31,079 nt of DNA, from the NCBI GenBank assembly GCA_036259515.1, contig DATABP010000705.1, positions 1 to 31,079 on the forward strand, written 5' to 3'. Position numbers and translations under genes: made by a program. Source of the DNA: Thermoanaerobaculia bacterium (GTDB lineage Bacteria; Acidobacteriota; Thermoanaerobaculia; Multivoradales; JBCCEF01). Shown here one piece after another: positions 7,907 to 30,175 of the stretch; the stretch's first letter is position 1; each line of letters begins with the position of its first letter. The notes beneath the pieces were generated by a model. The model searched no databases and was not told where the DNA came from. It saw nothing but the letters and a program-made list of their open reading frames with translations.

Positions 7907-9175
7907 GTGAAGCCGGGGAAGAAGAGCGCCGACGGGATCTTTCGCCAGGTCGCGCTCGAGCGGCTGTCGTCGCCGGAGCAGCTCGACCAGCTCGTCCAGG
8001 TCACCCGCCCCGGAGGCTGGATCACCCTCGGCGCCTTCACCGTGCTGATCCTCGCCGCCGGCCTGTGGTCCGTGCTGGGCAGCATCCCGATCGTCGCCGC
8101 CGGCGAGGGGATGCTGCTGCGCCCGGGCGGCGTCTCCGAGCTGGTCACCCTCGCCGCCGGTCAGGTCGAGGTGGTCCTCGTCGCCCCCGGCGACCCGCTC
8201 CACAAGGGCCAGGTGGTGGCGCGGGTGCGGCAGGAGGGATTGCAGCGGGAGATCGAGGAGGCACGGGCGCGGCTCGTCGACGTTCGCGGCGACCGCGCCG
8301 AGCTCGCCGCCTACGTCGCCGAGCAGCGCAGCCTGCGCCGCCGGGAGCAGGAGCAACGGCGGGCGAACCTCCAGCTCGGAATCGCCCGTCTGGAGCGCGA
8401 GCTGGCGCTGCTCGAGGATCAGGCGGAGGCGGAGGCGACGCTGCTCGAGGAGGGCCTGGTCACCAAGCAGGTGTTGCTCGCCACCCAGCAGCGCCTCAAC
8501 GCCACCCGCGACGAGCTCGCCGCCCGCCGCCTCGAGCTCGGCGGCTTCGATCTCGTCGACCTCGAGGAGGAGCAGCGCCTCTCCCAGCAGCTCCAGGAGC
8601 GCGACCGCGCGATCCGCGACCTCGAGCTCGAGCTCGGCGAGCTACGCGCCAGCCTGGCCGAGAACGTCGAGGTCGTCTCCCCCCACGACGGCCGCGTGCT
8701 CGAGCTGATGGCCGACCGCGGCGACGTGGTGCAGGTCGGCGACCCGCTGCTCAGCTTCGAGGTCGCCGGCGAGGAGCTGGTCGCGGTGCTGTTCGTCCCC
8801 GCCGCCGAGGGCAAGCGGCTGCGCCCGGGCATGCCGGCGCGAGTGGCGCCGGCCACCGTCAAGCGCGAGGAGCACGGCTACATGGAGGGGGTGGTCCGCC
8901 GAGTCGCCGCCTACCCGTCGACCCCGCGCGGCATCCAGCGGCTGCTCGCCAACGAGGCGCTGGTCGAGCGGCTGGTCGCCGAAGGACCGCCGATCCAGGT
9001 CGACGTGACGCTGCGGCGCGACCCGGGCGCTCCGAGCGGCTTCGCCTGGACCTCCTCGGGCGGTCCCGACGTCGAGATCAGCAGCGGCACGCTGGCCAGC
9101 GGGCAGGTGGTGGTGCGGCGGGAGCGGCCGTTCCGTTGGCTGATCCCCGCGGCGCGGGAGAGCCTCGGCCTGTGA
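7907..9175 (+). CDS. NHLP bacteriocin system secretion protein (HlyD-like membrane fusion protein), 422 aa
   Basis: IFRQVALERLSSPEQLDQLVQVT N-terminal signature, a single TM segment, a long coiled coil, and VKREEHGYMEG and WTSSGGP motifs. GGAGGT SD before the GTG. Confidence 0.92.
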   Translation: MKPGKKSADGIFRQVALERLSSPEQLDQLVQVTRPGGWITLGAFTVLILAAGLWSVLGSIPIVAAGEGMLLRPGGVSELVTLAAGQVEVVLVAPGDPLHKGQVVARVRQEGLQREIEEARARLVDVRGDRAELAAYVAEQRSLRRREQEQRRANLQLGIARLERELALLEDQAEAEATLLEEGLVTKQVLLATQQRLNATRDELAARRLELGGFDLVDLEEEQRLSQQLQERDRAIRDLELELGELRASLAENVEVVSPHDGRVLELMADRGDVVQVGDPLLSFEVAGEELVAVLFVPAAEGKRLRPGMPARVAPATVKREEHGYMEGVVRRVAAYPSTPRGIQRLLANEALVERLVAEGPPIQVDVTLRRDPGAPSGFAWTSSGGPDVEISSGTLASGQVVVRRERPFRWLIPAARESLGL

Positions 9176-11364
9176 GCCGCCTCCGGCTCCCCTGGCGGCG
9201 CCGCAGCCAGCGGCCGCGGCGCGTTCGCACCCCGACGATGCTCCAGATGGAGGCCGTCGAGTGCGGCTCGGCCTGCCTCGGCATCGTGCTGGCGACCTTC
9301 GGCCGCTGGGTCTCGCTCGAGGAGCTGCGCCTCGCCTGCGGCGTCTCGCGCGACGGCAGCAAGGCGAGCAACATGGCGAAGGCGGCGCGGCGCTACGGGC
9401 TCGTCGCGCGCGGCTTCAAGAAGGAGCCGGCGGCACTGCGCGAGCTCCCCGCGCCGATGATCCTGCACTGGAACTTCAACCACTTCGTGGTGCTCGAGGG
9501 GTTCGGCCGCGGCCGCGCGTACCTCAACGATCCCGCCTCGGGCCCGCGCACCGCCAGCGAGGAGGAGCTCGACCAAGCGTTCACCGGCGTGGTGCTCACC
9601 TTCGCTCGCGGCGAGGGCTTCACCCGCGGCGGCAGGCCGCCGAGCCTCCTGCGCGGCCTGCGCCAGCGCCTGGCCGGCAGCGGCTCCGCCGTCGCCTTCG
9701 TGGTGCTCGCCGGTCTCGGTCTGGTGGTCCCGACGCTGGCCATGCCGGCCTTCGCGAAGGCGTTCGTCGACGGCGTGCTGATCGGCGGCCGCGCCGAGTG
9801 GCTGCCGCCGCTGGTCCTGGCGATGACGCTGGCGGCGCTCGTCCTCGGCGCACTGACCTGGCTGCAACAGGTCGGCCTGCTGCGGCTCGAGACACGGATG
9901 GCGCTCGGCGGCTCGAGCCGCTTCCTCTGGCACGTGCTGCAGCTTCCGGTCGAGTTCTTCAACCAGCGCTTCGCCGGCGACGTCAGCAATCGAGTGGCGA
10001 TCAACGACCGCCTCGCCCAGCTCCTCTCCCGCGACCTCGCGGCCAACGCGGTGGCGGCGGCGACGCTCGCCCTCGTCGTGGTCGTGCTCGCCGCCTACGA
10101 TCCGCTGCTCACCCTGGTCGGACTGGCGGTCGTCTCCCTCAACGTGCTGGCGCTGCGCTGGGTGTCGCGGCGACGGGTGGACGGCAACCGGCGTCTGCTC
10201 CAGGAGACCGGGAAGCTCCACGGCACGGCGATCGGCGGCCTCCAGATCATCGAGTCGCTGAAGGCGACCGGCCGCGAGTCGGAGCTCTTCGCCCGCTGGG
10301 CGGGCCACCAGGCGAAGGTGGTCAACGGCCGGCAGGAGCTGGAGCGCCACACCCAGCTCCTGGGCGCGGTGCCGCCGCTCCTGGCGGCGCTCAACACCGC
10401 GGCGATCCTCGGCATCGGCGGCCTGCGGGTGATGGAGGGCCGGCTGACCCTCGGCGAGCTGGTCGCCTTCCAGATCCTGATGGTCAGCTTCACCGCCCCG
10501 GTGGAGAGGATCGTCCAGCTCGGCGGCCGGCTGCAGCTCGTCGAGGGGGACATGAGCCGCCTCGACGACGTGATGCGCTACCCGGTCGATCCCACGGCCG
10601 CGGCCAGCGAGCCGCCGCCCACCACCGAGCCGGCGAAGCTCGCCGGGCGCCTCGAGCTGCGCGGCGTCACCTTCGGCTACAGCCGCGTCGAGCCACCGCT
10701 CCTCGACGGTTTCGACCTGGTGCTCGAGCCGGGGGCGCGGGTGGCGCTGGTCGGCACCACCGGGAGCGGCAAGTCGACGGTCGCCAAGCTGGTCACCGGC
10801 CTCTACGAGCCGTGGGAGGGCGAGATCCTGTTCGACGGGCGGCCGCGCGGCGAGGTCCCGCCGGCGGTGGTCCGCAACTCACTGGCCGCCGTCGACCAGT
10901 CGATCGCGCTGTTCGAGGGCACGGTGCGCGAGAACCTGTCGCTGTGGGACTCGACGCTGCCGCTGCCGCGCATCGTCGCCGCCGCCCGAGACGCCGCCAT
11001 CCACGAGGTGATCGCCGCGCGGCCGGGCGGCTACGACAGCCGGATCGAGGAAGGCGGCGCCAACTTCAGCGGCGGCCAGCAGCAGCGGCTGGAGATCGCC
11101 CGCGCGCTCGCCGGCGACCCCACCCTCCTCGTCCTGGACGAGGCGACCAGCGCGCTCGACCCGGCGACCGAGTCGGCGATCGACGGCGCGCTACGGCGGC
11201 GCGGCGCGAGCTGTCTGATCGTCGCCCACCGCCTGAGCACGGTGCGCGACGCCGACGAGATCCTGGTGCTCGAGCGGGGCAAGGTCGTCCAGCGCGGCAC
11301 CCACGACGAGCTTCTGGCGGACGGCGACGGCGCCTACGCGCGCCTGATCGCCGACGGCACGTGA
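9172..11364 (+). CDS. NHLP-family ABC exporter, C39 peptidase/permease/ATPase subunit, 730 aa
   Basis: VRTPTMLQMEAVECGSACL (catalytic Cys), LHWNFNHFVVLEG (His), YLNDPA, TM region, Walker A GTTGSGKST, signature FSGGQQQR and DEATSALD. GTG 9172 overlaps the upstream TGA. Confidence 0.95.
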   Translation: MSRLRLPWRRRSQRPRRVRTPTMLQMEAVECGSACLGIVLATFGRWVSLEELRLACGVSRDGSKASNMAKAARRYGLVARGFKKEPAALRELPAPMILHWNFNHFVVLEGFGRGRAYLNDPASGPRTASEEELDQAFTGVVLTFARGEGFTRGGRPPSLLRGLRQRLAGSGSAVAFVVLAGLGLVVPTLAMPAFAKAFVDGVLIGGRAEWLPPLVLAMTLAALVLGALTWLQQVGLLRLETRMALGGSSRFLWHVLQLPVEFFNQRFAGDVSNRVAINDRLAQLLSRDLAANAVAAATLALVVVVLAAYDPLLTLVGLAVVSLNVLALRWVSRRRVDGNRRLLQETGKLHGTAIGGLQIIESLKATGRESELFARWAGHQAKVVNGRQELERHTQLLGAVPPLLAALNTAAILGIGGLRVMEGRLTLGELVAFQILMVSFTAPVERIVQLGGRLQLVEGDMSRLDDVMRYPVDPTAAASEPPPTTEPAKLAGRLELRGVTFGYSRVEPPLLDGFDLVLEPGARVALVGTTGSGKSTVAKLVTGLYEPWEGEILFDGRPRGEVPPAVVRNSLAAVDQSIALFEGTVRENLSLWDSTLPLPRIVAAARDAAIHEVIAARPGGYDSRIEEGGANFSGGQQQRLEIARALAGDPTLLVLDEATSALDPATESAIDGALRRRGASCLIVAHRLSTVRDADEILVLERGKVVQRGTHDELLADGDGAYARLIADGT

Positions 11365-14294
11365 GCCTGCCGGCCCCCCGCCCGGCGCCGGAGCGCCCGC
11401 CCGCCTGGGACGAGGAGCTGGTCGCCGGCGGCACGCCGCTCACGCTGGGCGGCAACACCCCCTTTCCCTTGATCGGGCGGCGATCGGCGTGGCGGGTCGA
11501 GAGCGGGCGCGTCGAGGTCTTCGCGGTGGCGCTCGGCGGCGGCCGCCCGCTCGCCCGCGTCCACCTGGCGAGCGCCGACGTGGGTTCCTGGCTGTTCGGC
11601 GGCACCGCCCGCCCGGCCGCCGCCGAGCTCGAGCTCGAGGCGGTGCCGGCGGCCGGCACCCGGTTGGTGCGCGTGGACGAGGCGGCGCTCGCGGCGGCCG
11701 AGTGGCCCGGCGGGCTCGACGAGGCGTTCGGCGTCTGGCTCGACCGCCTCTGCCGCGGCGCGGTACGGCCGCGCCCAGCCCGGATGCCACACGAGCTGGC
11801 GCGGGGGGCGACGCTGGACCTGGTGCCTGACGAGGCGGCGCGACCGTCTCTCGACCCGGTGTGGGCGACGGTGACCGGCCGCTGCCGGCTGTGGGGGGAC
11901 GAGCGGCTCGATCTCCCCGCCGGAGCGCCGCTGCCGCTGCCGACCGCGGCCTGGATCGCCGCCGCCGGCGAGGCGCGGGTCGCCGCCGCCGACGGCCCGC
12001 CCTCCGCCGACGTGGCGCTGACGGGCTACGAGCGGCTCCTGGACCTCCTCCTCGTCCACCTGCGGCATGGCGTCGACGCCGGGCAGTCCGCCGAGCGCGA
12101 TCGCCTGGCCCGCCGTCACGCCGCCGACCGGGCGGCGGTGAGCCGCTCGGCAGCGCGGCTCGCCACCGTGCTCCTACCCCGCCAGGCGGCCGCCGAGACG
12201 ATCGAACCGGGGGGCGATCCGCTGCACGCCGCCGCCCGGTTGGTCGCCGCCACGGCCGGCATCGAGCTCCACCTTCCCGCCGGCCCCGCCGCGGCGCCGG
12301 CGCGCGTCGCCGACGCGCTGAATCTCCTCGGCAGCCGCTCTCGGGTGCGCCATCGCCGGGTGCTCCTGCGCGACGACTGGTGGCGCCGCGACAACGGCCC
12401 GCTCCTCGCCTTCCTCGCTCCCGACGACCCGGCGCAGGGCGAGCGGCGGCCGGTGGCGCTCCTTCCGCTCTCGCCGCGGCGCTATCAGTTGGTCGAGCCG
12501 GTGGAGGGAACGCGCACCGCGGTCGACGCGGCGCTCGCCGGGCGGCTGACCGGCGACGCCTACATGTTCTACCGCCCACTGCCCGAACGGCCGCTCGGGC
12601 CGCTCGACCTGCTCCGCGCGCTGGCCCGCGAAGGCCGCCGCGACGCCGTCGTGATCGTCGCGCTCGGCGCGGTCGGAGGGCTCCTCGCGCTCGCCCTGCC
12701 GCTCGTCACCGGCGCCCTCTTCGGCAGGGTCATCCCCAGCGCCGACCGGTCGCAGCTCGCGCAGATGACGCTCGCCTGGATCGTCGCCGCGCTCGGCATG
12801 AGCGCGTTCCGCCTGGTCCGTGCCCTCGGCCTCCTGCGCGTCGGCGGCCGCCTCGACAGCACCCTCCAGCCGGCGGTGTGGGACCGCCTGCTGGCCCTGC
12901 CGGTCGATTTCTTCCGCCGCTACACGGTCGGCGACCTCGCCGACCGGGCGTTCGGGGTGAGCCAGATCCGGGAGCTCCTCGCCGGCCACGCCGCGACCTC
13001 GCTCCTCGGCGCCGTCTTCGCGGTGTTCAGCTTCGCCCTGCTCTTCTACTTCAGCCCGCCGCTGGCGCTGGCGGCGACCGGGGTCGTCGTGCTGCTCCTC
13101 GCCGTCGCCGCGACCCTCGGCTGGCTGCAGGTGGTGGCGCAGCGGAGGCTCTTCGCGGTGCGCGGACGGATCGCCAGCCTGCTCTTCGCGTTGATCCACG
13201 GCCTTCCCAAGCTGCGCGTGGCCGGCGCCGAGCGCCGCGCCTACGCGCGTTGGGCCGAGCGCTTCGCCGAGCAGCGGCGCCACGACGTCGGCGCCCGCCG
13301 CATCGCCATCGCGCAGACCACCTTCCTCGCCGTCTTCCAGGTGCTGGCGCTCGCCGCGCTGTTCGCGGTCGCCGGGCTGTCGGCGCGCGAGGAGCTGCCG
13401 GTCGGACGGTTCCTCGCCTTCAACGCCGCCTTCGGCCAGGTGCTCGGGGCGGTGGTGGTGGTCGTCCACCTGCTCCCCGAGCTGCTCACCGCGGTGCCGG
13501 TCTACGAGCGGCTCTCCCCGATCCTCACCACCGCTCCGGAGGTCGACGACAGCAAGGCCGAAGCCGGCGAGCTGCGCGGCGAGATCGAGGTCTCGAACGT
13601 CACCTTCCGCTACGCCGACGACCTGCCGAACGTGCTCCACGAGATGTCGCTCCATGCCCGCCCGGGCGAGTTCGTCGCCCTGGTCGGACCCTCCGGTTCG
13701 GGCAAGTCGACCTGTCTGCGGCTGCTCCTCGGCTTCGAGCGGCCGCGGGCCGGCTCGATCTACTACGACGGGCAGGACCTCGCCGGGCTGTCGCTGACCT
13801 CGGTGCGTCGGCAGGTGGGAGTGGTGCTGCAGAACGGCCGTTTGATGGCCGGCACGATCTTCTCGAACATCGTCGGCGACTCCGACCTCGGCATCGACGA
13901 GGCCTGGGAGGCGGCGCGGCTGGCGGGGCTCGACGAAGACGTCCGCGCGATGGCAATGGGCATGCACACCATCGTCTCCGAGGGCGCCGGTACCTTCTCC
14001 GGCGGCCAGAAGCAGCGGCTGCTGATCGCCCGCGCCATCGTCCACCGGCCGCGCATCCTGTTCTTCGACGAGGCGACGAGCGCGCTGGACAACCGGGTGC
14101 AGGAGGTGGTCAGCCGGAGCCTGGAGCGGCTGGAGGCCACCCGCGTCGTCGTCGCCCACCGGCTGAGCACCATCGCGCGGGCGGACCGCATCTACGTCGT
14201 CGACGGCGGGCGGGTGGTCGAGAGCGGCACCTACCGCGAGCTCGTGGCACAGGATGGGCTGTTCGCCCGCCTCGCGTCGCGGCAGACGCTGTGA
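11361..14294 (+). CDS. NHLP bacteriocin system ABC transporter permease/ATPase subunit (no peptidase; N-terminal cNMP-binding-like domain), 977 aa
   Basis: VRHRRVLLRDDWWRRDNGPLLAF, DAYMFYRPLP, Walker A GPSGSGKST, FSGGQKQR and FFDEATSALDN. GTG 11361 overlaps the upstream TGA. Confidence 0.93.
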   Translation: MSLPAPRPAPERPPAWDEELVAGGTPLTLGGNTPFPLIGRRSAWRVESGRVEVFAVALGGGRPLARVHLASADVGSWLFGGTARPAAAELELEAVPAAGTRLVRVDEAALAAAEWPGGLDEAFGVWLDRLCRGAVRPRPARMPHELARGATLDLVPDEAARPSLDPVWATVTGRCRLWGDERLDLPAGAPLPLPTAAWIAAAGEARVAAADGPPSADVALTGYERLLDLLLVHLRHGVDAGQSAERDRLARRHAADRAAVSRSAARLATVLLPRQAAAETIEPGGDPLHAAARLVAATAGIELHLPAGPAAAPARVADALNLLGSRSRVRHRRVLLRDDWWRRDNGPLLAFLAPDDPAQGERRPVALLPLSPRRYQLVEPVEGTRTAVDAALAGRLTGDAYMFYRPLPERPLGPLDLLRALAREGRRDAVVIVALGAVGGLLALALPLVTGALFGRVIPSADRSQLAQMTLAWIVAALGMSAFRLVRALGLLRVGGRLDSTLQPAVWDRLLALPVDFFRRYTVGDLADRAFGVSQIRELLAGHAATSLLGAVFAVFSFALLFYFSPPLALAATGVVVLLLAVAATLGWLQVVAQRRLFAVRGRIASLLFALIHGLPKLRVAGAERRAYARWAERFAEQRRHDVGARRIAIAQTTFLAVFQVLALAALFAVAGLSAREELPVGRFLAFNAAFGQVLGAVVVVVHLLPELLTAVPVYERLSPILTTAPEVDDSKAEAGELRGEIEVSNVTFRYADDLPNVLHEMSLHARPGEFVALVGPSGSGKSTCLRLLLGFERPRAGSIYYDGQDLAGLSLTSVRRQVGVVLQNGRLMAGTIFSNIVGDSDLGIDEAWEAARLAGLDEDVRAMAMGMHTIVSEGAGTFSGGQKQRLLIARAIVHRPRILFFDEATSALDNRVQEVVSRSLERLEATRVVVAHRLSTIARADRIYVVDGGRVVESGTYRELVAQDGLFARLASRQTL

Positions 14295-14316: not shown

Positions 14317-14850
14317 ATGCGCAAGGTCCTGTTCGTCTTCGGTCAACTGGCCGACGACGACGTCGAATGGCTGCTGGCGCACGGCCGGCGCCGCCGGCTG
14401 GTCGCCGGCGAGGCGCTGATCCGCCAGGGCGAGCCGATCGACGACGTATTCATCGTGCTCACCGGCCGCTTGCGAGTGGTTCTCGGCGGCGAGCGGCGGG
14501 AGATCGCCCTCCTCGGCGCCGGCGAGATCGTCGGGGAGATGTCGTTCGTCGACGCGCGGCCGCCGTCGGCGACCGTCGAAGCGGTCGAGCCGGCGCAGGT
14601 CTTCGCCGTGCCGCGCAGCCGGCTGGCGGCGCGGCTCGAAAGCGAGCCCGCCTTCGCCGCCCGCTTCTACCGCGCGCTGGCGATCTACCTCTCGACCACC
14701 GTGCGCGAGCGCCATCGGATGCTGCTCGCCGGCGGCGTCACCGGGGGTGGCGAGGACGACGCCGACGAGCTCGACGCGACGGTGCTCGACGGCGTGTCCC
14801 AGGCCGGCGCCCGCTTCGACCGCCTGGTCAAGAGGGTGCTGGCGTCGTAG
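14317..14850 (+). CDS. Cyclic nucleotide-binding domain protein of the type associated with bacteriocin transport, 177 aa
   Basis: MRKVLFVFGQLADDDVEWL, LIRQGEPIDDVFIVLTGRL and GEIVGEMSFVDARPPSATVEA (phosphate-binding cassette). AAGGAG SD before ATG 14317. Confidence 0.88.
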   Translation: MRKVLFVFGQLADDDVEWLLAHGRRRRLVAGEALIRQGEPIDDVFIVLTGRLRVVLGGERREIALLGAGEIVGEMSFVDARPPSATVEAVEPAQVFAVPRSRLAARLESEPAFAARFYRALAIYLSTTVRERHRMLLAGGVTGGGEDDADELDATVLDGVSQAGARFDRLVKRVLAS

Positions 14851-14860
14851 GAGGCCACCG

Positions 14861-18233: not shown

Positions 18234-18263
18234 TTGACTTAATTCGGGGTGCTCGTATATCTT
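18234..18263 (+). promoter_or_regulatory. Sigma70-like promoter TTGACT-N18-TATCTT for the lanthipeptide modification cassette
   Basis: -35 at 18234-18239 and -10 at 18258-18263, in an AT-rich patch just after the cyclase stop. Same -10 and spacing as the phaR promoter. Confidence 0.6.
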
Positions 18264-18350: not shown

Positions 18351-19601
18351 ATGGGACTGGCGAAGGGGGCAGGCGCGGTCGGCGGCCGTGCGCCCTTCTC
18401 GCCGCCGGCAGAACCGGACGAGCCGGGCGCGGAGAGGATCGCCCGCCACCTCCGCCGCATCGCCCGCGACGTCGAGCGCCGCCTCGGCAGCGCGGAGGGC
18501 TCCGAGCGGCGCATCGCGTCGGTTCGCGCCTCCGACGGCCCGCCCACCCCCGACGGCACCTTCGACCTCTACCTCGGCGTCCCGGGGAGCGCCCTCTTCC
18601 TCGCCGCCCTCGCCCGGGTCGACGGCTCCTCCGACGACCGCGAGCGCTGCCTTCGCGCGATCGCGCCCCTGCGGCGGAGCGCAGCGCCCCGGGAGGCGCC
18701 GCCGAACGGCGCGCTGACCGGCACCGCCGGCGCCGTCTACGCGCTGAGCGTCGTCGCGCACCTGCTCGACGAGCCTTCGCTGCTCGACGACGCACACCGG
18801 CTGGCCGACCGCATCGATCTGCGGGCGATCGCCGAGGACCGCTTCCCCGACGTGGCGTGCGGCAGTGCGGGCACCCTCCTGTGCCTCCTCGCCCTCGGCC
18901 CGCGACTCGATCAGCCGGGGCCTCGCGGCCGCACCCCGCGCGATCTCGCCCTGCGCTGCGCCGACCGGCTCCTCGTCTGGTGCGGCGAGGAGCGTCGCGT
19001 GCGGAGCGGCTTCTCCCACGGCGCCTCGGGAGTGGCCACCGCGCTCGCCCGGCTGGCGGCAGTCACCGGCCGTGAGGACCTGGCGTCGGCGGCCCTCCGA
19101 CTGCTCGCCCGCGAGCGCGACCGCTTCGACGCGGCGGCGGGTCGCTGGACGGTGTCGGAGCAGGATCCCCTGGCGTCGCCGTGCTCGTGGTGCTTCGGGG
19201 CGCCGGGTCTCGCGCTGGCGCGCCTCGCGGTCGCCGAGCACGTCGCCCCGTCCCGCGCCGCCGCCCTGCGCGAGGAGGCGGAGACCGCGCTCGAGCAGAC
19301 CCTGACGGCGCCTCCCGACGGCGGCCTCGACCACCTCTGCTGCGGCGTCTTCGGCCGCGTCGAGACGCTCCTCGTCGCACACCGCCTGACCGGCCGCCCG
19401 GACCTCGCGGAGGGCGCCCGCGCGCTCGCCCACCGGGCGCTCGACGCCGCCGAGGAGGCCGGCGGCTTCCGCATCGACCATCCGAGCCTCGCCGCCTCCT
19501 TCTTCCGCGGCGTGGCGGGAATCGGCTATGCCCTGCTGCGTCTCGGGGGCGCGTCGGACCTCCCCTCGCCACTCCATTTCGAAGCTCCGTTCCCGCCATG
19601 A
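18351..19601 (+). CDS. Stand-alone LanC-like lanthionine cyclase resembling the C-terminal domain of LanM; start uncertain (18339 or 18351), ~416 aa
   Basis: Alpha/alpha-toroid GxxG repeats DLYLGVPGSALFLAAL, GALTGTAG, DVACGSAG, GFSHGASG (acid His), WCFGAPG, DHLCCG (Zn ligands) and FFRGVAGIGYALLR. There is no upstream dehydratase domain. Confidence 0.85.
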   Translation: MGLAKGAGAVGGRAPFSPPAEPDEPGAERIARHLRRIARDVERRLGSAEGSERRIASVRASDGPPTPDGTFDLYLGVPGSALFLAALARVDGSSDDRERCLRAIAPLRRSAAPREAPPNGALTGTAGAVYALSVVAHLLDEPSLLDDAHRLADRIDLRAIAEDRFPDVACGSAGTLLCLLALGPRLDQPGPRGRTPRDLALRCADRLLVWCGEERRVRSGFSHGASGVATALARLAAVTGREDLASAALRLLARERDRFDAAAGRWTVSEQDPLASPCSWCFGAPGLALARLAVAEHVAPSRAAALREEAETALEQTLTAPPDGGLDHLCCGVFGRVETLLVAHRLTGRPDLAEGARALAHRALDAAEEAGGFRIDHPSLAASFFRGVAGIGYALLRLGGASDLPSPLHFEAPFPP

Positions 19602-20575
19602 CCGTCGCCGCCGCCGTCGACGTCACGCTGGCCGATCCGCGGCTGACCTCCAGCATCTACTGCGCGGGCCATCTCGACGAGCTCCTGCACCGCGGCGTCG
19701 CACCGCTGTGGCGGGCGAGCCGCGCCGCCGGGGTGGGCGGCTATCTGTGGCTGATGCGCTACGCGCGATGCGGCGAGCACCTCAAGGTGCGCTTCCACGG
19801 CTCGCCCCGCGAGGCGGAGGACCTCCGGAGGGCACTGGCCGACGCGGTCGAGGAGGTCTTCGCGCGACTGCCGCCGCCGACGGCCGCCGAGCGCGAGCTG
19901 AACGAGCATCTGTTCGCGGTCGATCCCGAGGACCTGGCGACGGAGCCTTACCCCGACCGCACGCTGCTGTGGACCCGCTACCGGCGGTGGCCGGGCACGA
20001 TGGGTCGCGAGCCGCTGTCCGACGACCTGGGCCTGGCCGCGCTCTTCACCCGGTGCCTCGGGGCGGGTTGCGAGCACGTGCTCGACGAGCTGGTGCCGGA
20101 CGAGACCGGCCGCTTCCGCCAGTCGCTGCGCACCCGCATCGTCCTCGACCTCCTCCTCTGCGGCCTCTCGACCCTCGGCTTCCCGCCGCGCGAAGCCGCC
20201 CGCTACCTGGACTACCACCGCGACTGGCTGATCCTCGGCGGCGGCGGCGAGCTCGACCCGACGCACCGGCTCTTCGCCGCCAAGCTGGAACGCGAGGTCG
20301 CCGACCTGGCGCCCTTCGCTGGCGCCTACCGGCGGAGCGCCGAGGAGGGCCCCCAGGCCGTGCTCGCGCCGTGGAGCGCCGCGCTCGGCGACCTCGCCCG
20401 GTACACCTGCGAGCTCGCCGGGGTCGACGTGCCCTGGCAGCCGGACGATCCATACGAGCGCGACCAGGTCCTCGCGCCCCTCTTCAAGAGCCTGCACGGC
20501 CTGGCCAACCTGGTTCGCGTCGGGCTCTACAACGAGGCCTACCTGTGCCACCTCCTCGGCCGGGCGCTCGCCTGA
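19598..20575 (+). CDS. Divergent lantibiotic dehydratase C-terminal (elimination)-like domain protein, copy 1, 325 aa
   Basis: YLWLMRYARCGEHLKVRFH resembles the FFxRY...HLRxR motif, and LHGLAN resembles HMxxNR. ATGA overlap with the LanC-like stop. Confidence 0.72.
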   Translation: MTVAAAVDVTLADPRLTSSIYCAGHLDELLHRGVAPLWRASRAAGVGGYLWLMRYARCGEHLKVRFHGSPREAEDLRRALADAVEEVFARLPPPTAAERELNEHLFAVDPEDLATEPYPDRTLLWTRYRRWPGTMGREPLSDDLGLAALFTRCLGAGCEHVLDELVPDETGRFRQSLRTRIVLDLLLCGLSTLGFPPREAARYLDYHRDWLILGGGGELDPTHRLFAAKLEREVADLAPFAGAYRRSAEEGPQAVLAPWSAALGDLARYTCELAGVDVPWQPDDPYERDQVLAPLFKSLHGLANLVRVGLYNEAYLCHLLGRALA

Positions 20576-21564
20576 TGGAGACGACGATGCGACCGCAGCC
20601 GCTGCTGAGCGCCAACATCTACTGCGCGCAAGCCCTCGACGCGTTGATCGCCGAGGTGATCACGCCGTTCTCGCGGCAGGTGTGCGCCGAGGGCTCCTAC
20701 CTGTGGCTGATCCGCCACTCGCGGGGCGGCGAGCACCTCAAGGTCCGGCTCCACGCGCCGCCGGCGATCCAAGACCAGGCTCGACGGCTGCTCGAAGAGC
20801 AGGTGCGCTCCTTCTTCGCCGCGCTGCCGGCGAACGAGTCGGCGGCGGTGCCGGGCCAGGAGCAGCTCGCGGTGATCGATCCCGAGGACGCGGTGGACAG
20901 CCCGTACCCCGACCGCTCGCTCCTGTGGACCACCTACCAGGCAAGCCCGGTGACCTTCGGGGCGCCCATCCTGCTCGAGGATGCGGAGTTCCAGGCCCTC
21001 TTCACCCGCGCGCTCGGCGCCGGGTGCCGCATCGCGCTCGACCTCTTCGCGCCGGCGGCGAGCGAGGGCGCCGTGCCGATCGGCAAGCGCCAGAGCCTGG
21101 TCTTCAAGCTCGTCGTTCTCACCTGGCGGGCGCTGCCGGCCGCGGCGATCGACCGCGCGGGCTATCTCGACTACCACCGCGACTGGCTGGTGCGCTGGAT
21201 GCTCGCCCACTCCGATCCGGCGACGACGACGCGCGAGTCGGTGCTCGATCTCTTCGATCGCAAGGCGGCGACGATGGAGGCGTCGGTCGGCGTCCTGGCC
21301 TCCGCGCTGGCGCAGGAAGACGACGACGGCGAGGCCGAGGGACCGAACGCCGAGTACCAGCGGGCGATCCGCGACTACTTCCGGCAGGTCCAGGGGTTCC
21401 GCGGCGACCCGGCCTACCGGCTCGACCCCTACACCGAGGACGCCGCGTTCCTGCCGCTGTTCAAGGTGCTGCACAACCTCGCCAACGCGATCGGCCTCGG
21501 CATCCGGCATGAGGCGTTCACCTATCACCTGCTGAGCCGCGCCGCGCACCGGGAGCCGAAGTGA
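20575..21564 (+). CDS. Divergent lantibiotic dehydratase C-terminal-like domain protein, copy 2 (tandem paralog of copy 1), 329 aa
   Basis: YLWLIRHSRGGEHLKVRLH, PYPDRSLLWTTY, YLDYHRDWL and PLFKVLHNLAN. TGATG overlap with copy 1. Confidence 0.72.
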   Translation: METTMRPQPLLSANIYCAQALDALIAEVITPFSRQVCAEGSYLWLIRHSRGGEHLKVRLHAPPAIQDQARRLLEEQVRSFFAALPANESAAVPGQEQLAVIDPEDAVDSPYPDRSLLWTTYQASPVTFGAPILLEDAEFQALFTRALGAGCRIALDLFAPAASEGAVPIGKRQSLVFKLVVLTWRALPAAAIDRAGYLDYHRDWLVRWMLAHSDPATTTRESVLDLFDRKAATMEASVGVLASALAQEDDDGEAEGPNAEYQRAIRDYFRQVQGFRGDPAYRLDPYTEDAAFLPLFKVLHNLANAIGLGIRHEAFTYHLLSRAAHREPK

Positions 21565-24296
21565 CCGCCGCTCCGATCCTCGTCCGCGTCGCCGGCCTGC
21601 CGGCCTCTGCGATCGACTGCTTCTCGAGCCCGGAGCTGCTGCACCGGACCGCGCGGAGGAAGGAGGGCGAGGAGCGGCTGAGGGCCCTGCGCGAATCGCT
21701 CGTCGACCTCCTCTTCGGCGAGCTCGCCGCGCAGCCGCCCGAGCTGCGCAAGCTGATGCTCGCCTTGAAACGCGACTGTTTCAATCGGCGACCCCTGGCG
21801 CCCAGGACGGAGGACCCGCGCTGGCCGCGGCTCGGTGACGCGCTGCGCGCTCCCCTCGACGAGGCGGTGCGGCTGGAGCGGCAGCTCGGCCACGAAGAGG
21901 AGGAGATCCGCGACCTCTGGCGGCGCGAGATCCAGCGCGAGCGCGAAGCGTTGCGCGACGTGCTCGACGACCGCTCGCTGCTCCGCGGCGTCTCGCTCGC
22001 CAGTCAGCCGCTGGCGCAGAGGATGGACGCCTTCGAGACGCCGGCCGATCCGCTCCGCCCGAACCGGAAGCAGCGCAAGCTCGAGCAGAGCCTGTTGCGC
22101 TACGTCAGCCGCGCCGCGGTCAAGCTGTCCCCCTACTCCACCTTGACGCGGGTCGGCCTGGGGACCGTCGCCGCGCGGGAGGGCGACGGGTCCCTGGCCT
22201 TCGTCGGCGGCGACTGGGAGGAGACCTCGCTGCTGCGGATGCGCCGCTACATCGCGGATCAGATCGCGATGGTGCTCGCCTACTCCCCGGCGCTTCGCGG
22301 CGAGGTCCGCCTTCGCCTCAACGACACCCTGGAACGGCTGCCTTCCGGGCAGCTCCAGCTCCTGCGCCCGCTGCTGCTCCGCCACGACGAGGAGGCGGGG
22401 CAGCTCCGTTACGCGCGCATGTCGCTCGCGCGCCTGGCGCTCACCGGCCCGGTCTTCGAGCGTGTCCTGGAGGTCCTCGAAGCGGCGCCGGAGGGCCTCC
22501 GCCTGGACGAGATCTGCGACCGCTGCCAGGCGTCGCCGTCCGCCGCGGGCGGCGACGAGGACACGAGGCGCGAGGAGATCGAACGCCGCGTCGGCGCCCT
22601 GCTCGGCGCCGGCGTCGTCCTGCCCGAGCCGGCGTGGAAGTCCGAGGACGTCCACCTCGAGCGAGCGATCGCCGAAGGGCTGTCCGGAACCGACCCGGCC
22701 GTCGTGCCCGCCTCCCTCACCGAGAGCGTCGTCCAATTGGTCGAGCGCGAGTCGGCGTTCGCGTCGAACGGCCAACCGACACTGCGCTCGCTCGAGGAGC
22801 TCAACTCGCTGATCCACACGGTGTGGGACGAGAGCTGCGCGTTGGCCGAGAGCCAGCTCCGACTCCAGTTCCCGGCCGGCGAGAAGTACAACTTCTACGA
22901 GGACGTCTTCCTGAGCTCCGCCGAGCCGTGCCAGGAGATCGCGCAGCTCGACCCGACGGCAGCCGACCAGCTCCTCCTGGTCGGCGACGCCCTCTGGCAC
23001 TTCACCGACTTCTACCAGCCGCGGCGCGAGCTCCTCCTCACCCTCGACCGCCTCATCGAGGAGCGCTGGGGAGAACGCGCCAGCGTGCCCTTCCTGCAGC
23101 TCTTCCAGGAGGCCCAGGAGCTGTGGAAGGACTTCGTCCTCTTCAAGTACGACCAGCGCGAGTGCTTCGATCCCCTCGACAGTCCGGGCATCGAGGCGCT
23201 GCTCGAGACCCGCGAGGCGCTCCGCCACGAGCTCTTGGAGCTCTCGCGGAGCGAGGTCCTGCCGCTCGACCGGCTGCTGGCGATCCGTGACCGCATCCCG
23301 CCGGAGCACCTCTCCGAGCTGGGGGCGTGCCTGTTCGTGCAGCCGCTCGACCGCTCGGGGCGGCGCTGGGTGCTCAACCGGCTGTTCGAGGGCAGCGGAC
23401 GCTACAGCAGCCGCTTCTCCTCGCCGATGCCGGCCACGGTGCGCCGTCACTACCTCGCCCACTTCATCCGTTCCGCGCGGCGGCACCGCGCCGCCGGCGG
23501 CAGCGAGATCGTGGACGTCCTCTACGGGCGCGACAACACGGTCAACCTCCACCATCCGCAGACGGAGAGAGTGCTGGTCATCCCGGGAGAGTCGACGCGG
23601 CTGCCCCGCCACCGGCGGCTCTACCTCAAGGACCTCCGTGTCGAGCGGCAGCCCGGCCGCGGCGTCCCCGTCCTCACCGACGGGCGCGGCCGCCGCCTCC
23701 TGCCCTGCTACTTCAGCGCCATCAACGACATGTACCTGCCGGTGGTGGTCAAGTTCCTCTCCGCCTTCGGACCCTCCTCCGGAGCGGGCAAGGCGATCTT
23801 CCCGTGGCGCACCGAGCAGCGGCGAGGGATCACGGTCGCCGCGCCGCTCGAGGCCGGTCCCCTGCTCCTCCGGCGGCGGCGGTGGATCTTCCGCGCGTCG
23901 GCGCTGCCCCAGGCGCACGGCGACGCCGTCGACCGCTTTCTCGCCCTCGACGGGTGGCGCGGCGAGCACGGCATTCCCCGGCAGGTCTTCCTCATCGAGA
24001 AGATCGACGAGAACGAGACCGGCCAGCCGGTCTTCAAGCCGCAGTTCATCGACTTCGGCTCACCGCTCCTTTGCGACGTGTTCTTTTCGCAGCTCCGCTC
24101 TCCGGAGCAGGAGATCACCCTCGAAGAAGCTCTCCCGACCACCGACGCCTATCCAGCCGACGCGGCAGGGCGACGCTGGGCGGTCGAGCTCGTCGTGGAG
24201 AGCCTGTCGCTCTCGCACCTGTCGACCCATCGTGCCCCTTCCACGCTGAGGCGGCGCCTCGACGCCCGCGACGAGGCGTCACCCCATGAGATCTGA
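21561..24296 (+). CDS. Split LanB: lantibiotic dehydratase N-terminal (tRNA-dependent glutamylation) domain, 911 aa
   Basis: LVRVAGLP start, YVSRAAVKLSPYSTLTRVG (R-x3-K-x-S-P motif), an RRE-like segment (LRLNDTLE...), FYED and GSGRYSSRF. It has no C-terminal elimination domain. GTGA overlap with the upstream gene. Confidence 0.88.
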   Translation: MTAAPILVRVAGLPASAIDCFSSPELLHRTARRKEGEERLRALRESLVDLLFGELAAQPPELRKLMLALKRDCFNRRPLAPRTEDPRWPRLGDALRAPLDEAVRLERQLGHEEEEIRDLWRREIQREREALRDVLDDRSLLRGVSLASQPLAQRMDAFETPADPLRPNRKQRKLEQSLLRYVSRAAVKLSPYSTLTRVGLGTVAAREGDGSLAFVGGDWEETSLLRMRRYIADQIAMVLAYSPALRGEVRLRLNDTLERLPSGQLQLLRPLLLRHDEEAGQLRYARMSLARLALTGPVFERVLEVLEAAPEGLRLDEICDRCQASPSAAGGDEDTRREEIERRVGALLGAGVVLPEPAWKSEDVHLERAIAEGLSGTDPAVVPASLTESVVQLVERESAFASNGQPTLRSLEELNSLIHTVWDESCALAESQLRLQFPAGEKYNFYEDVFLSSAEPCQEIAQLDPTAADQLLLVGDALWHFTDFYQPRRELLLTLDRLIEERWGERASVPFLQLFQEAQELWKDFVLFKYDQRECFDPLDSPGIEALLETREALRHELLELSRSEVLPLDRLLAIRDRIPPEHLSELGACLFVQPLDRSGRRWVLNRLFEGSGRYSSRFSSPMPATVRRHYLAHFIRSARRHRAAGGSEIVDVLYGRDNTVNLHHPQTERVLVIPGESTRLPRHRRLYLKDLRVERQPGRGVPVLTDGRGRRLLPCYFSAINDMYLPVVVKFLSAFGPSSGAGKAIFPWRTEQRRGITVAAPLEAGPLLLRRRRWIFRASALPQAHGDAVDRFLALDGWRGEHGIPRQVFLIEKIDENETGQPVFKPQFIDFGSPLLCDVFFSQLRSPEQEITLEEALPTTDAYPADAAGRRWAVELVVESLSLSHLSTHRAPSTLRRRLDARDEASPHEI

Positions 24297-24356: not shown

Positions 24357-24369
24357 AAGGAGAAGAGAG

Positions 24370-24561
24370 ATGTCGAAGAAGAAGGACGAGCTGGAGAAGA
24401 TCGAGGAGCTCGACGTGCAGGGTCTGTCGGACGAGGAGCTCGAGTCGGTCGCCGGCGGCGCCGAGGCGGCCACCGACGTCGTGTCCTGTTCCTGCTCCTG
24501 CTGTGCGGCCACCGCGACGAATCAGACGCAGTCGCCCTCGCTGGATCCCAGCGGCGGCTAG
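24370..24561 (+). CDS. RiPP (lanthipeptide-like) precursor, 63 aa: 30 aa double-Gly leader plus 33 aa Ser/Thr/Cys-rich core
   Basis: MSKKKDELEKIEELDVQGLSDEELESVAGG | AEAATDVVSCSCSCCAATATNQTQSPSLDPSGG. Strong SD; lies immediately after the LanB gene. Confidence 0.9.
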   Translation: MSKKKDELEKIEELDVQGLSDEELESVAGGAEAATDVVSCSCSCCAATATNQTQSPSLDPSGG

Positions 24562-24577
24562 CGAGCACGGCGATGGA

Positions 24578-24623
24578 CCGCCCGGCCGAGAGCGCCCCAG
24601 CTCGCGGCCGGGCGGCCTTCTTT
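24578..24623 (+). terminator. GC-rich stem-loop after the precursor (leaky terminator or 3' stabiliser)
   Basis: 11-bp perfect stem CCGCCCGGCCG (24578-24588) / CGGCCGGGCGG (24605-24615), followed by CCTTCTTT. The weak U-tract suggests partial read-through. Confidence 0.55.
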
Positions 24624-24642: not shown

Positions 24643-25344
24643 ATGCCAGCCACCGAGACCCTGCGCTGGTACTACTTCATCCCCCGCTGCGGCGGCGAGG
24701 GGCAGCGCTGGTTCGTCGACTATCACGCCTCCCGGTGCATGCAGTTGACGGCCGATCTCGATCGCGCCCTCGTCCTGCTCCGCACGCAGAGGGTGAACGA
24801 GGGTTGCGTGCTGCTCGACCGCTGCGAGGCGCGTCTGGACGCGATGCGGCAGGCGCTCGCGCCCGCGGTGTTGAAGGTCGCCGAACGCTGGTACTTCAGC
24901 ACCGTGGCCTACTACTGGTACGTGGTCGGGGACGCTCCCCGGGCGCTCCTCTTCCTGCGGCAGGCCGAGGAGGCGCTGGTCGCGGCGATCGACCGCGCCG
25001 GTTTCCTCGTCGTCCTCGCCGGCGCGTGCTGCGAGTTCGAGCTCCACCGGGCGCGCGTCGCCCGCTCGGTGGGTGACTGGCCGACCATGCGCGAGCACCT
25101 CGAGGGCGGACGCGCGATGGTCGAGAACCGCCGCCCCCTGTGCGAGCTCGACGGCGGGACGGCGATCCACTTCCGCGACTACGACGGGTTCTTCCGCACG
25201 CTTCGGCCGCGAAGCGAAGAGGAGCGAGCGGCGATCGCGCAGCTCACCGACGCCGGGGTGCGCGCCCGCGGCTTCGAGCTCCACGCCCGCCGGGTCGAGC
25301 TCCTGCCGAACGTCGTGGTGCCGTTCCAGGCCACGGAGCTCTGA
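24643..25344 (+). CDS. Hypothetical helical (TPR-like) protein inside the RiPP cassette, 233 aa
   Basis: Ordinary protein composition, unlike the shadow ORFs. Its TGA overlaps the next ATG (TGATG). I recognise no family motif. Confidence 0.7.
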   Translation: MPATETLRWYYFIPRCGGEGQRWFVDYHASRCMQLTADLDRALVLLRTQRVNEGCVLLDRCEARLDAMRQALAPAVLKVAERWYFSTVAYYWYVVGDAPRALLFLRQAEEALVAAIDRAGFLVVLAGACCEFELHRARVARSVGDWPTMREHLEGGRAMVENRRPLCELDGGTAIHFRDYDGFFRTLRPRSEEERAAIAQLTDAGVRARGFELHARRVELLPNVVVPFQATEL

Positions 25345-26345
25345 TGCTCACCGGGCCCGCGACCCTGCCCTCGGCGGTGAAGCTCGGCGCGAGCTGCTGG
25401 ATCTCCTACAACCTCTACACGTCGTCGGGGGACGAGGCGCTGCGCGGGGTGATCGCTCCCGCCGTCGCCGACCTCCTCCGCCGGCGCTCGATCCGCGGCT
25501 TCTTCTTCGTGCGCTACTTCGACGAGCGAGGGCCGCACCTCCGAGTGCGCCTCGACGTCGCGGAGTCTCGGCTCGAAGAGGCCGACGCCGCCTTCGTGGC
25601 CGGTGTCCTGTCGCGGCTCGACGCGCCGACGCCCGGCGATCGCCTCCTGCCCTCCGAGATCGAGCTGGAGGTCGAGCGCTACGGCGGCCCCGCGGCGCAC
25701 CTCGCCGCGCTCGATTTCTTCTGTCTCTCCAGCCTCCACGCCCTGGAGCACGTCCGCCGCCACCACGCGGCGAGGCCCGTGCAGCGCCTCAAGCTGGCGA
25801 CTTCGCTCCTGCTCTGGCAGGCGTTGGGGTTCGCCCGCACCGTCGAGGAGCTGCGGGCGCTCCTCGACTACTTCAGCGGCTGGCGACCGGCGCTGGCGGC
25901 GGTCGTCGCCAAGGCCGACGAAGCCTTCGACCGGCACCCCGAGGGCTGGTGCGAGCTCCTTCACCGGGCGATCCGCATCGCCGACGAGGCCGCCGAGAGC
26001 GCGGCCGGCGACCTCGGGTCGGCGGGGGCGATCTTCACCGCCTCCCGCGGCCTGTCCCGGCAGACCGAGGAGGTGCCGTCCGCCGCCCGCGCCGAGCTCG
26101 CCCGCAGCCAGATGCACATGACCGCCAACCGCATCGGTCTGAGCAATGCCTGGGAGATCTACCTCTCGCAGATCCTCTGCCGGAGCGCGGCCGCCGCCGA
26201 GGCCGCCGATCCCGCGTTCCTCCCTGGCCTCGAGCGCCGTCTGAGCCACTGGCGAAGCCAGGCGCACCCGGCGGGAGCGGTCGCTCTCGCCGAGCTCGTC
26301 GCCGACGGCCTCGCCCGCTTCGCGGCGGGCTGGCCGTCGAGATAG
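25344..26345 (+). CDS. Thiopeptide-type bacteriocin biosynthesis protein / canonical Lant_dehydr_C elimination domain, 333 aa
   Basis: WISYNLY, FFFVRYFDERGPHLRVR, LEVERYGG and SQMHMTANRIGL...EIYL. Confidence 0.88.
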   Translation: MLTGPATLPSAVKLGASCWISYNLYTSSGDEALRGVIAPAVADLLRRRSIRGFFFVRYFDERGPHLRVRLDVAESRLEEADAAFVAGVLSRLDAPTPGDRLLPSEIELEVERYGGPAAHLAALDFFCLSSLHALEHVRRHHAARPVQRLKLATSLLLWQALGFARTVEELRALLDYFSGWRPALAAVVAKADEAFDRHPEGWCELLHRAIRIADEAAESAAGDLGSAGAIFTASRGLSRQTEEVPSAARAELARSQMHMTANRIGLSNAWEIYLSQILCRSAAAAEAADPAFLPGLERRLSHWRSQAHPAGAVALAELVADGLARFAAGWPSR

Positions 26346-28747: not shown

Positions 28748-29862
28748 GGAGGACCTCCCGCACCGACCGACCGTGGGAGCGTGAACCGGGCCGGGTCGTC
28801 CCGACAGCCGGCGCGCCCGAAGGTCGAGCGCGCAGACGACCGCAGGAGCTGAACCATCAGGTACGCCTTGGCCTCGGGAGCGCGGCCGGGTACCGCGATC
28901 AACTTGACATGGCTCAGAGCGCGCGCCACCGCGTCGCCGAGACCGGCGCCGTCAGGCCAACGCGGGCAGGCGCTCCAGAGAGTTTCGGCGCCGGTCCAGT
29001 CGGAGAGGGCGTCGCGTTCCTCCGGACGACAGAGGCCGGCGGCGACCAGGCCGTCGAGCAGCGTCCGCCAGCGCGGTTCCCGCCGCGGAAGCCGCCGGAA
29101 GGAGCAGTTGACGCCGAAGCGCGGCCGGACCTCCTCTCCGACGTCGAGCGCGAGATGGTGCGGCTCGGCGTCGGCGGTCAGCGGCCGGAGCTCGCCGACG
29201 GCGCGGCCGGCGTCGGCGCCGGCCAGCCGCTCCACCAGGCGCCGTACGGCGTCGAAGCTCAGGCCACCGATCTCGATCCGCTCCGGCCGACCCGGACGGG
29301 AGAGCATCGAGAACGCGTAGCGCGTCCGCGCCCCGCGCGGCAGCGCCCGCAGCGCCCGTTCCAGCGCGCGCCGATGGGAGGCCGGGATACGGCGTCCCGC
29401 GAGGGCCGCGAAGAGGCCGCTCGCCAAGGGATCGGGCGCTTCGGGCGCGAGGTCCGCCGCGGCGCTCGGCAGCGGCAGCCCGCCCCCGGCGCCGGGCGCG
29501 CCGTCGAGGTCGTACTCGAGCCACAACCAGCGGACACCGCGCCAAGCGCCCCGTCGGCCGCCGCACGCGAAGCGGGTCAGGTGGGACGGCAGGGCGGCGG
29601 CGGGGAGCCGTCGCGCCGTGGAGCGATCCAGACGGATCGAGAGGTCCACCGGCGCCTGGCCGGAGCGGCCGAGCCGCAGCTCGAGCGCCGCCAGCGCGTC
29701 GAGCGGCAACTCGGCGGCGGCGGCGGCCAGGCGACCGAGCGCCGGCAGACCCGCCAGAGTCGGCCGCAGCCGGTCTTCGACGAGTGGCAGGAGCTCCGAG
29801 AGGCGGCCTTCCGACGCCGGCGAGAGTCGGCCCGCGGCGACCGCCTCAGGTTCCCCCACCAC
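28744..29862 (-). CDS. Hypothetical RiPP-associated protein, possibly PT-barrel (ABBA prenyltransferase)-like; start uncertain (29862 or 29859), ~372 aa
   Basis: Motifs ELRL...VDLSIRL, WLWLEYDL, LDVGEEVRPRFGVNC, EPRWRTLLDGLVAAGLC and ALSHVKL...PEAKAYL. Lies between the Nif11 precursor and the permease (ATGA overlap). The fold call is inference only. Confidence 0.6.
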   Translation of the reverse strand: MVGEPEAVAAGRLSPASEGRLSELLPLVEDRLRPTLAGLPALGRLAAAAAELPLDALAALELRLGRSGQAPVDLSIRLDRSTARRLPAAALPSHLTRFACGGRRGAWRGVRWLWLEYDLDGAPGAGGGLPLPSAAADLAPEAPDPLASGLFAALAGRRIPASHRRALERALRALPRGARTRYAFSMLSRPGRPERIEIGGLSFDAVRRLVERLAGADAGRAVGELRPLTADAEPHHLALDVGEEVRPRFGVNCSFRRLPRREPRWRTLLDGLVAAGLCRPEERDALSDWTGAETLWSACPRWPDGAGLGDAVARALSHVKLIAVPGRAPEAKAYLMVQLLRSSARSTFGRAGCRDDPARFTLPRSVGAGGPP

Positions 29863-30175
29863 CGGTGCCGCCGCTGCCCGTGCCGCCGGTGCCGTCGGTG
29901 CCGTCGGTCCCGCCGGTGCCGGTGCCGGTGCCGTCGCCGTTCTCGCCGGTGCCGTCGTCGTCCCAACCGCCCGCCACCTGCTCGAGGTCCTCGTCCTCGA
30001 GCTCCTCGCGGCGAGCGAGGAGCTCCACGGCCTCGTCGGCGTCGAGCCGGTAGCCCAGCTCGGCCGCGCGGCGACGCCAGAGGTCGGGATCCTGCCGAAC
30101 GGCGGCCAACTCGCGGGCGACGTCTTCACGGGCCGCCAGGTCGATCACCAGACGCCGTGCTTCGGTCCTCGACAT
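29846..30175 (-). CDS. Nif11-like leader RiPP precursor, 109 aa: 70 aa leader plus 39 aa Trp-led Gly/Thr/Asp-rich core
   Basis: The leader has Nif11-type features (DLAAREDVARELAAV...AAELGYRLDADEA...ELEDEDLEQVAGG). Core: WDDDGTGENGDGTGTGTGGTDGTDGTGGTGSGGTGGGGT. Very strong SD AGAGGAGGTGA. Confidence 0.88.
   Translation of the reverse strand: MSRTEARRLVIDLAAREDVARELAAVRQDPDLWRRRAAELGYRLDADEAVELLARREELEDEDLEQVAGGWDDDGTGENGDGTGTGTGGTDGTDGTGGTGSGGTGGGGT

Follow-up and report, generated by a model that had tools for sequence, protein, structure and literature searches.

The gene at 24370..24561 (+) raises the question of how a leader of just 30 residues might direct a single peptide both to a modifying enzyme and to an exporter, and of what may become of the cysteine-rich core behind it. 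The gene lies in a stretch of 31,079 nt, here called the window, from the MAG of an uncultured soil member of the Thermoanaerobaculia (Acidobacteriota), which comprises 3.4 Mb on 831 contigs and is 75.7% complete; the contig has a GC content of 74%. A first-pass annotation had read the leader as a dual address, in which a class I box of the F(N/D)LD type stands ahead of a double-glycine helix.

The precursor gene and its neighbourhood

The precursor gene, its segments and its flanking signals are as follows:

24357..24362 (+): Shine-Dalgarno-like AAGGAG, 7 nt 5' of the precursor ATG, read from the sequence
24370..24561 (+): precursor peptide gene, 63 aa plus stop, from ORF reading, GC3 phase and homologues
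24370..24459 (+): leader peptide, 30 aa (residues 1-30), ending in V-A-G-G, from alignment and leader statistics
24400..24417 (+): N-terminal leader box I-E-E-L-D-V, positions -20 to -15, conserved acidic/hydrophobic, tracking the LanB pathway
24424..24459 (+): double-glycine export helix L-S-D-E-E-L-E-S-V-A-G-G, positions -12 to -1, from leader statistics
24460..24558 (+): core peptide, 33 aa (residues 31-63), from comparison of 20 distinct family members
24484..24504 (+): S-C-S-C-S-C-C block, from the sequence and family comparison
24575..24615 (+): GC-rich hairpin followed by a T-rich tract, just 3' of the precursor stop (dG -48.8 kcal/mol, z -2.8)

The open reading frame begins with ATG and runs for 63 codons to a TAG, in a frame that agrees with the third-position GC phase (GC3). 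Seven metagenome proteins of 44 to 77% identity are homologous to it, and these, like the paralogue sets of three related genomes, keep the same Met start, leader and core. Because a ribosome-binding site and a coding phase are found together with homologues sharing the same Met and a conserved leader and core, 24370..24561 is, on sequence evidence, a genuine gene rather than a fortuitous ORF. Its copy number in its own MAG is one. No Pfam family matches the precursor, phmmer gave no meaningful match among PDB sequences, and the NCBIfam matches, all below cut-off, are to models of the Gly-Gly or thiazolylpeptide type, with no class I precursor model among them. The space between a RiPP structural gene and the next gene is the usual place for an attenuator, and the hairpin found there appears to be attenuator- or terminator-like.

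The co-directional genes around the precursor were called from GC3 phase, start-codon inspection, Pfam and NCBIfam:

7907..9175 (+): HlyD-type exporter adaptor
9238..11364 (+): C39 peptidase-ABC exporter, NHLM_micro_ABC1 (PF03412, E 9.5e-32; TIGR03796, 1036 bits, cut-off 853)
11361..14294 (+): second ABC subunit, NHLM_micro_ABC2 (TIGR03797, 901 bits, cut-off 709)
14317-14850 (+): cNMP-binding protein
18351..19601 (+): stand-alone LanC-type cyclase with a Cys/Cys/Cys (CCG) zinc-ligand set (PF05147, E 6e-51)
19598..20575 (+): Y, divergent Lant_dehydr_C paralogue, 325 aa, from homology to C2
20575..21564 (+): C1, divergent Lant_dehydr_C paralogue, 329 aa, from homology to C2, with a predicted fold nearest the TbtD/PbtD aza-cyclases
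21561..24296 (+): split LanB, glutamylation part only, 911 aa, TbtB/GodF-like (PF04738, E 8.6e-16; matches to 6ec7 and 9jhq)
24643..25344 (+): Z, all-helical TPR-like protein, 233 aa, from its model and its recurrence
25344..26345 (+): C2, canonical glutamate-elimination protein, 333 aa (PF14028, E 2.5e-34; TIGR03891)

The modification cassette thus reads LanC, Y, C1, LanB, precursor, Z, C2, and most of its junctions are overlaps of 1 to 4 nt (translationally coupled). The LanC frame is open from 18249, its first ATG is at 18351, and a promoter-like site is found at 18234-18263. Upstream lie the NHLM-type exporter genes; the C39-ABC protein, the second ABC subunit, the HlyD protein and the cNMP-binding protein all match NHLM export equivalogs above cut-off, and the C39 ABC exporter looks active as judged from its sequence. 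Between the exporter and the modification genes, 14317-18202 (+) encodes the cNMP-binding protein and a zinc-ribbon/adenylate-cyclase/AAA/TPR regulator, both of which have counterparts of 45 to 68% identity in related loci. On the other strand, at 6678-7772 (-), two adjacent ORFs each match one half of DUF7005 (profile positions 14-175 and 216-359); by sequence the pair resembles a single gene interrupted by an in-frame stop.

Two parts of the leader

A search for related loci with the single LanB sequence gave no match, whereas an alignment used as the query succeeded. Among 300 genomes of the same order, 47 carry full-length LanB homologues (30 to 37% identity), against only 2 of 401 genomes sampled across the phylum; the LanB family is concentrated in one order. 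In the alignment-based scan the hosts of LanB loci were MAGs of Thermoanaerobaculia, other Acidobacteriota and some Longimicrobium. Nearly all recovered loci carry one to six Gly-Gly precursors adjoining LanB, mostly just downstream, with cores that are rich in Cys, Ser and Thr and very diverse. The accessory sets differ as well, as some clusters hold LanC and C2 only, others C2 only, many hold C1, with Z or without it, but lack LanC within 10 kb, and others, like the window, hold everything.

Leader statistics were calculated from 74 distinct Cys-core precursors adjoining LanB homologues, aligned on the cleavage site; positions -20 to -13 played no part in finding these peptides. The consensus is L-(S/T)-D-(E/D)-(D/E)-L-(E/D)-S-(V/A)-(A/S)-G-G at -12 to -1, preceded at -20 to -13 by (I/V)-(E/D)-(N/D/E)-(L/V/I)-(E/D)-(I/V)-E-(P/A/S), where each position holds 1.7 to 2.9 bits of information despite very different cores. 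The E-L-D-V of the window leader occupies -18 to -15, and its I-E-E-L-D-V is a normal member of the family box. As controls, 15 Trp-core precursors from the same loci were used, one of which lies in the window itself:

28744-29862 (-): Q, unannotated protein adjoining the Trp-core precursor
29846..30175 (-): second, unrelated Nif11-type Trp-core precursor, with the same -12 to -1 helix and no N-terminal box, from leader comparison

The window Trp-core precursor has a Trp-containing core rich in Gly, Thr and Asp behind its Nif11-type leader; Q-type genes and Trp-core precursors recur in many related loci.

The triplet hydrophobic(-17)/acidic(-16)/hydrophobic(-15), L-D-V in the window, is present in 66 of the 74 Cys-core precursors and in none of the 15 Trp-core precursors, although the latter share the -12 to -1 helix; as all loci were chosen via a LanB homologue, this sampling in part presupposes an association of the box with LanB, and the Trp-core peptides are its only internal control. 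Several of the eight sequences lacking the triplet are near misses or are not precursors. Conservation of the box that holds E-L-D-V in precursors beside LanB, which the first-pass annotation had put forward as a check, is thereby borne out. The helix in turn has the features of a double-glycine leader, namely V(-4), L(-7), L(-12) and G-G at -2/-1, together with a C39 ABC exporter in the cluster. Since the box is found in Cys-core precursors but is missing from Trp-core precursors with the same export helix, the comparison supports a two-part leader, with a box that would serve the dehydratase pathway and a Gly-Gly helix that would serve the C39 exporter.

Double-glycine leaders (ComC, LahT-type substrates) typically have hydrophobic residues at -4, -7, -12 and -15, so that the C39 domain could be the partner of part of the box. 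The E-L-D-V region might then be a mere N-terminal extension of the double-glycine helix, with -15 read by the C39 domain and no separate address for an enzyme; a hydrophobic residue at -15 in 72 of the 74 family precursors agrees with this. It is nevertheless an improbable explanation, as the Trp-core precursors of the same loci do without the box and only five of the 15 are hydrophobic at -15, the window Trp-core precursor has one C39 exporter available to it, and conservation reaches to -20, past the usual C39 footprint.

While the two parts of the earlier dual-address proposal stand, its label for the first part is only loosely right. In place of F-(N/D)-L-(D/E) the family has E/D at -19, where Phe would stand, N/D at -18, L/V at -17, E/D at -16 and I/V at -15; the precursor matches no class I precursor model, and its LanB is not NisB-like. 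Neither the window leader nor the family consensus contains the Bacteroidota motif LxLxKx5L. A Nif11/NHLP leader domain is not recognized either, TIGR03798 giving E 0.048 and 13.9 bits against a cut-off of 32.3, over model positions 45-68 only.

The box is retained where Y/C1 and Z are missing, in 7/7 cases in clusters with LanC and C2 only and in 3/4 cases in clusters with C2 only. As it is kept in clusters without LanC, Y/C1 and Z, its constant partner appears to be LanB with its lyase.

Enzymes, core and proposed modification

The LanB family profile matches TbtB (6ec7, E 4.5e-59) and the goadsporin enzyme GodF (9jhq, E 1.3e-41), while NisB and MibB are not matched at an E of 0.01 or better. 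For this reason LanB is placed, by sequence comparison, in the split-LanB clade of thiopeptide and azole-peptide pathways. The elimination protein C2 scores 78 bits against TIGR03891, above the cut-off of 48, and its R..R, ExxRYGG and HMxAxR motifs are invariant in 18 homologues and align by profile to those of MadB and NisB; phmmer gave no meaningful PDB-sequence match for it. LanC carries the motifs SGFSHG, SWCFG and HLCCG with Cys/Cys/Cys zinc ligands in place of Cys/Cys/His, a set shared with ProcM-type LanM cyclases (HLCCG), and its best NCBIfam match is the C-terminal (cyclase) domain of LanM. A dehydratase (Lant_dehydr_N) gene adjoining the precursor, marked by PF04738, an elimination domain with its catalytic residues, and a LanC with zinc ligands and catalytic His are thus all encoded, as expected of a class I LanB/LanC system. 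Judged from its genes, the precursor would be the substrate of a class-I-type lanthipeptide pathway. In another genome, G023 (L013 / L077), the N-part of LanB and LanC are accompanied by three precursors ending in N-A-C-C, with no detectable elimination protein within 10 kb.

Translation confirms the earlier count of four Cys, six Ser and four Thr in the 33-aa core, with all Cys placed in S9-C10-S11-C12-S13-C14-C15 and a Cys-free tail. To see which of these features are general, 20 distinct members of the core family, from metagenomes and from three genomes with two to five tandem copies each, were aligned on the last S-C-x-C-C. Invariant among them are the residues of S-C-x-C-C-x3-A-T, in the window S11, C12, C14, C15, A19 and T20, with A-T at +8/+9 in 19 of the 20. 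Position S13 is S, T, M or I in the family, the Ser being replaced by M, T or I in 7/20; the full alternating S-C-S-C-S-C-C, with the extra N-terminal S9 and C10, is found in just five of the 20, and neither the length nor the sequence of the tail is constant. Both the Ser/Cys alternation and the Ser/Thr tail, to which the first reading had given weight, are thus present in the window, but in this alignment they are sub-clade and not family features. As three invariant Cys are set against two invariant hydroxy residues, a simple all-lanthionine product is not guaranteed. Interlocked rings are plausible, and overlapping i+3 rings of the nisin D/E kind would be possible.

The Ser- and Cys-rich core, the closeness of LanB to TbtB and GodF of azole-peptide pathways, the resemblance of C1 to pyridine synthases and a weak, sub-threshold precursor match to the thiazolylpeptide model TIGR03892 (E 0.009) might together point to a thiopeptide- or pyritide-like substrate, whose Cys would be turned into thiazoles by a YcaO from elsewhere in the genome or whose two Dha would be joined into a pyridine by the TbtD-like proteins. 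We consider this highly improbable. It had been noted before that the window has no YcaO, which we confirm, and the suggested search of the genome found none in the MAG at its 75.7% completeness; five near-complete relatives with the cassette do have YcaO on other contigs, unlinked to it, and within about 1.5 kb of these YcaO genes there is no Gly-Gly precursor. Formation of a pyridine requires two Dha, but in place of two conserved Ser only one is invariant in the 20 family cores, and C1 reaches 37 bits against the cut-off of 325 of the pyridine-synthase equivalog NF045556. An intact LanC and a Gly-Gly/C39 route for leader removal are also present. In roughly 35 related loci, screened with the window's own proteins and thus not for YcaO-type genes, no thiopeptide-style enzymes were seen beyond LanB and the TbtD-like proteins.

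Homology of the paralogues Y and C1 to C2 has an hhalign probability of 99.2%; both are without the ExxRYGG region and have invariants of their own instead (W44, R47, H54, K56, R58, D102 and R202). As these polar residues are kept, the Y/C1 family looks functional on sequence grounds. A profile of 30 Y/C1 homologues had no PDB sequence match, and phmmer gave no meaningful one for Y. The C1 model (pLDDT 93) is nearest to TbtD and PbtD (TM 0.60-0.67, E about 1e-7), with the LanB elimination domains next. According to the title of PDB 5wa4, TbtD-type proteins bind leader fragments, so that Y/C1 may be leader readers too. Z, whose model (pLDDT 94) is an all-helical TPR-like solenoid with weak TPR matches, is present in 19 of 26 distinct clusters with Y/C1 and was never seen without them. 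A function of Y/C1 as syn-glutamyl lyases (PMC9486935) was considered and rejected, as the conserved ExxR region is missing and a Tyr is kept where syn-lyases have Lys; a link between Y/C1 and adjacent Cys-Cys pairs in the core was dropped, as such pairs occur with and without Y/C1.

These proteins bear on the question of who reads the box. It might be read mainly by Y/C1 or Z instead of LanB, and those proteins, not LanC alone, would then decide the cross-links. The kinship of the C1 model with TbtD and PbtD, one matching structure being TbtD with a leader fragment, is in keeping with such a role, as are the invariant polar residues of Y/C1, the apparently peptide-binding type of the modelled Z fold and the many related clusters that have C1 and Z with no LanC within 10 kb. 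The equal conservation of the box where Y/C1 and Z are missing argues against it, so that we regard it as unlikely, although binding by LanB would be compatible with it as well.

The reading that we favour, with a probability of roughly 0.7, is a class-I-type lanthipeptide pathway in which the two parts of the leader have separate readers and the core is processed by the following steps. Through the box at -20 to -15 the peptide would dock on the TbtB-like split LanB, and perhaps on the TbtD-like paralogues as well. The 911-aa LanB would glutamylate Ser and Thr of the core using Glu-tRNA, and the 333-aa elimination protein would remove the glutamate to give Dha and Dhb. The CCG-type LanC would then add Cys thiols to form thioether rings around the S-C-x-C-C-x3-A-T block. 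Finally, the C39 domain of the NHLM-type ABC exporter would read L-S-D-x-E-L-x-x-V-A-G-G at -12 to -1 and cut after Gly-Gly during export.

More tentatively, the S-C-x-C-C-x3-A-T peptides might not be plain lanthipeptides. The TbtD-like paralogues and the TPR-like protein, guided by the same box, would in that case install an undescribed cross-link or modification and may even replace LanC as the ring closer in LanC-less sister clusters, and in the leader a thiopeptide-style address for the enzymes would be naturally fused to an NHLP-style address for export. Loci that have a C1-type paralogue, in many cases along with Z, but lack LanC within 10 kb (L054, L063, L064, L069, L072, L074, L015, L016) have cores built on C-S-x3-C-S or S-x-x-C-C. 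By their gene content, such loci suggest that a TbtD-like protein may take part in ring closure.

Comparison with described systems

A two-part leader is not new in principle, as other Gram-negative bacteria are known to have this layout. Gly-Gly leaders and C39 proteases have been described for class I precursors from Bacteroidota (LxLxKx5L) and Thalassomonas, and split LanBs and extra elimination-domain homologues, possibly with other chemistry, have been noted in class I clusters (PMC7268733, PMC9680876); extra lyases that alter stereochemistry are also known (PMC9486935). With these Gram-negative systems (pinensin with split PinB1/B2, Ped15.1/15.2, thalassomonasins, viridisins; PMC7268733, PMC9680876) the window shares LanB-type dehydration, LanC, the Gly-Gly end, a C39 ABC transporter, an enzyme-recognition motif upstream of the Gly-Gly helix and, for some of them, a split LanB. 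It differs in its phylum, Acidobacteriota, in an acidic hydrophobic-E/D-hydrophobic box where the Bacteroidota have LxLxKx5L, and in its TbtB/GodF-like LanB, CCG LanC, two TbtD-like paralogues, TPR-like protein and two-ABC NHLM exporter.

Compared to thiopeptide and pyritide systems (TbtB/TbtC/TbtD; MroB/MroC/MroD, PMC9247985), the cassette has a LanB of the same split clade, stand-alone proteins of the Lant_dehydr_C fold with kinship to the pyridine synthases, and an acidic leader with alternating hydrophobic and acidic residues, but it has no YcaO, includes LanC, has one invariant Ser and C39 leader removal, and its paralogues fall below the pyridine-synthase cut-off. In MroA1 the leader contains the stretch D-L-D-I-V-D-L-D-L, and its reader MroB is also a split LanB (PMC9247985). 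The window box looks, by sequence, more like these acidic/hydrophobic boxes than like FNLD. With the NHLP/Nif11-leader RiPPs (TIGR03796/03797) the window shares the exporter equivalogs and the C-terminal leader helix, while its leader, of just 30 aa, has no Nif11/NHLP domain.

The nisin leader has L(-16), D(-15) and L(-14). Nisin-type leaders thus share with the window the L-D/E-hydrophobic part at a similar distance, about 15 to 17 residues before cleavage; the window leader lacks the Phe and would be removed at Gly-Gly by C39 and not by a LanP protease.

The S-C-x-C-C-x3-A-T precursor family is new, in that no curated model among those searched describes it, and literature searches found no description of this acidobacterial family; some of its enzymes are likewise undescribed. 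It is thereby defined in a phylum from which hardly any natural products have been characterised, beside a set of enzymes in which lanthipeptide parts are combined with parts of the thiopeptide type. It is in that set, with its TbtB-like LanB, CCG LanC, two TbtD-like paralogues and TPR-like protein, that new chemistry, if any, would be located. The loci also offer a natural experiment on modular RiPP leaders, as two unrelated precursor families share the export helix and only the LanB-adjacent one has the upstream box, which makes the address for each partner directly testable. At the edge of one related locus (L055:20849, +), there is a further Gly-Gly peptide, whose leader is of another kind and whose core is long and rich in Cys; the same exporter may serve it as a third type of precursor.
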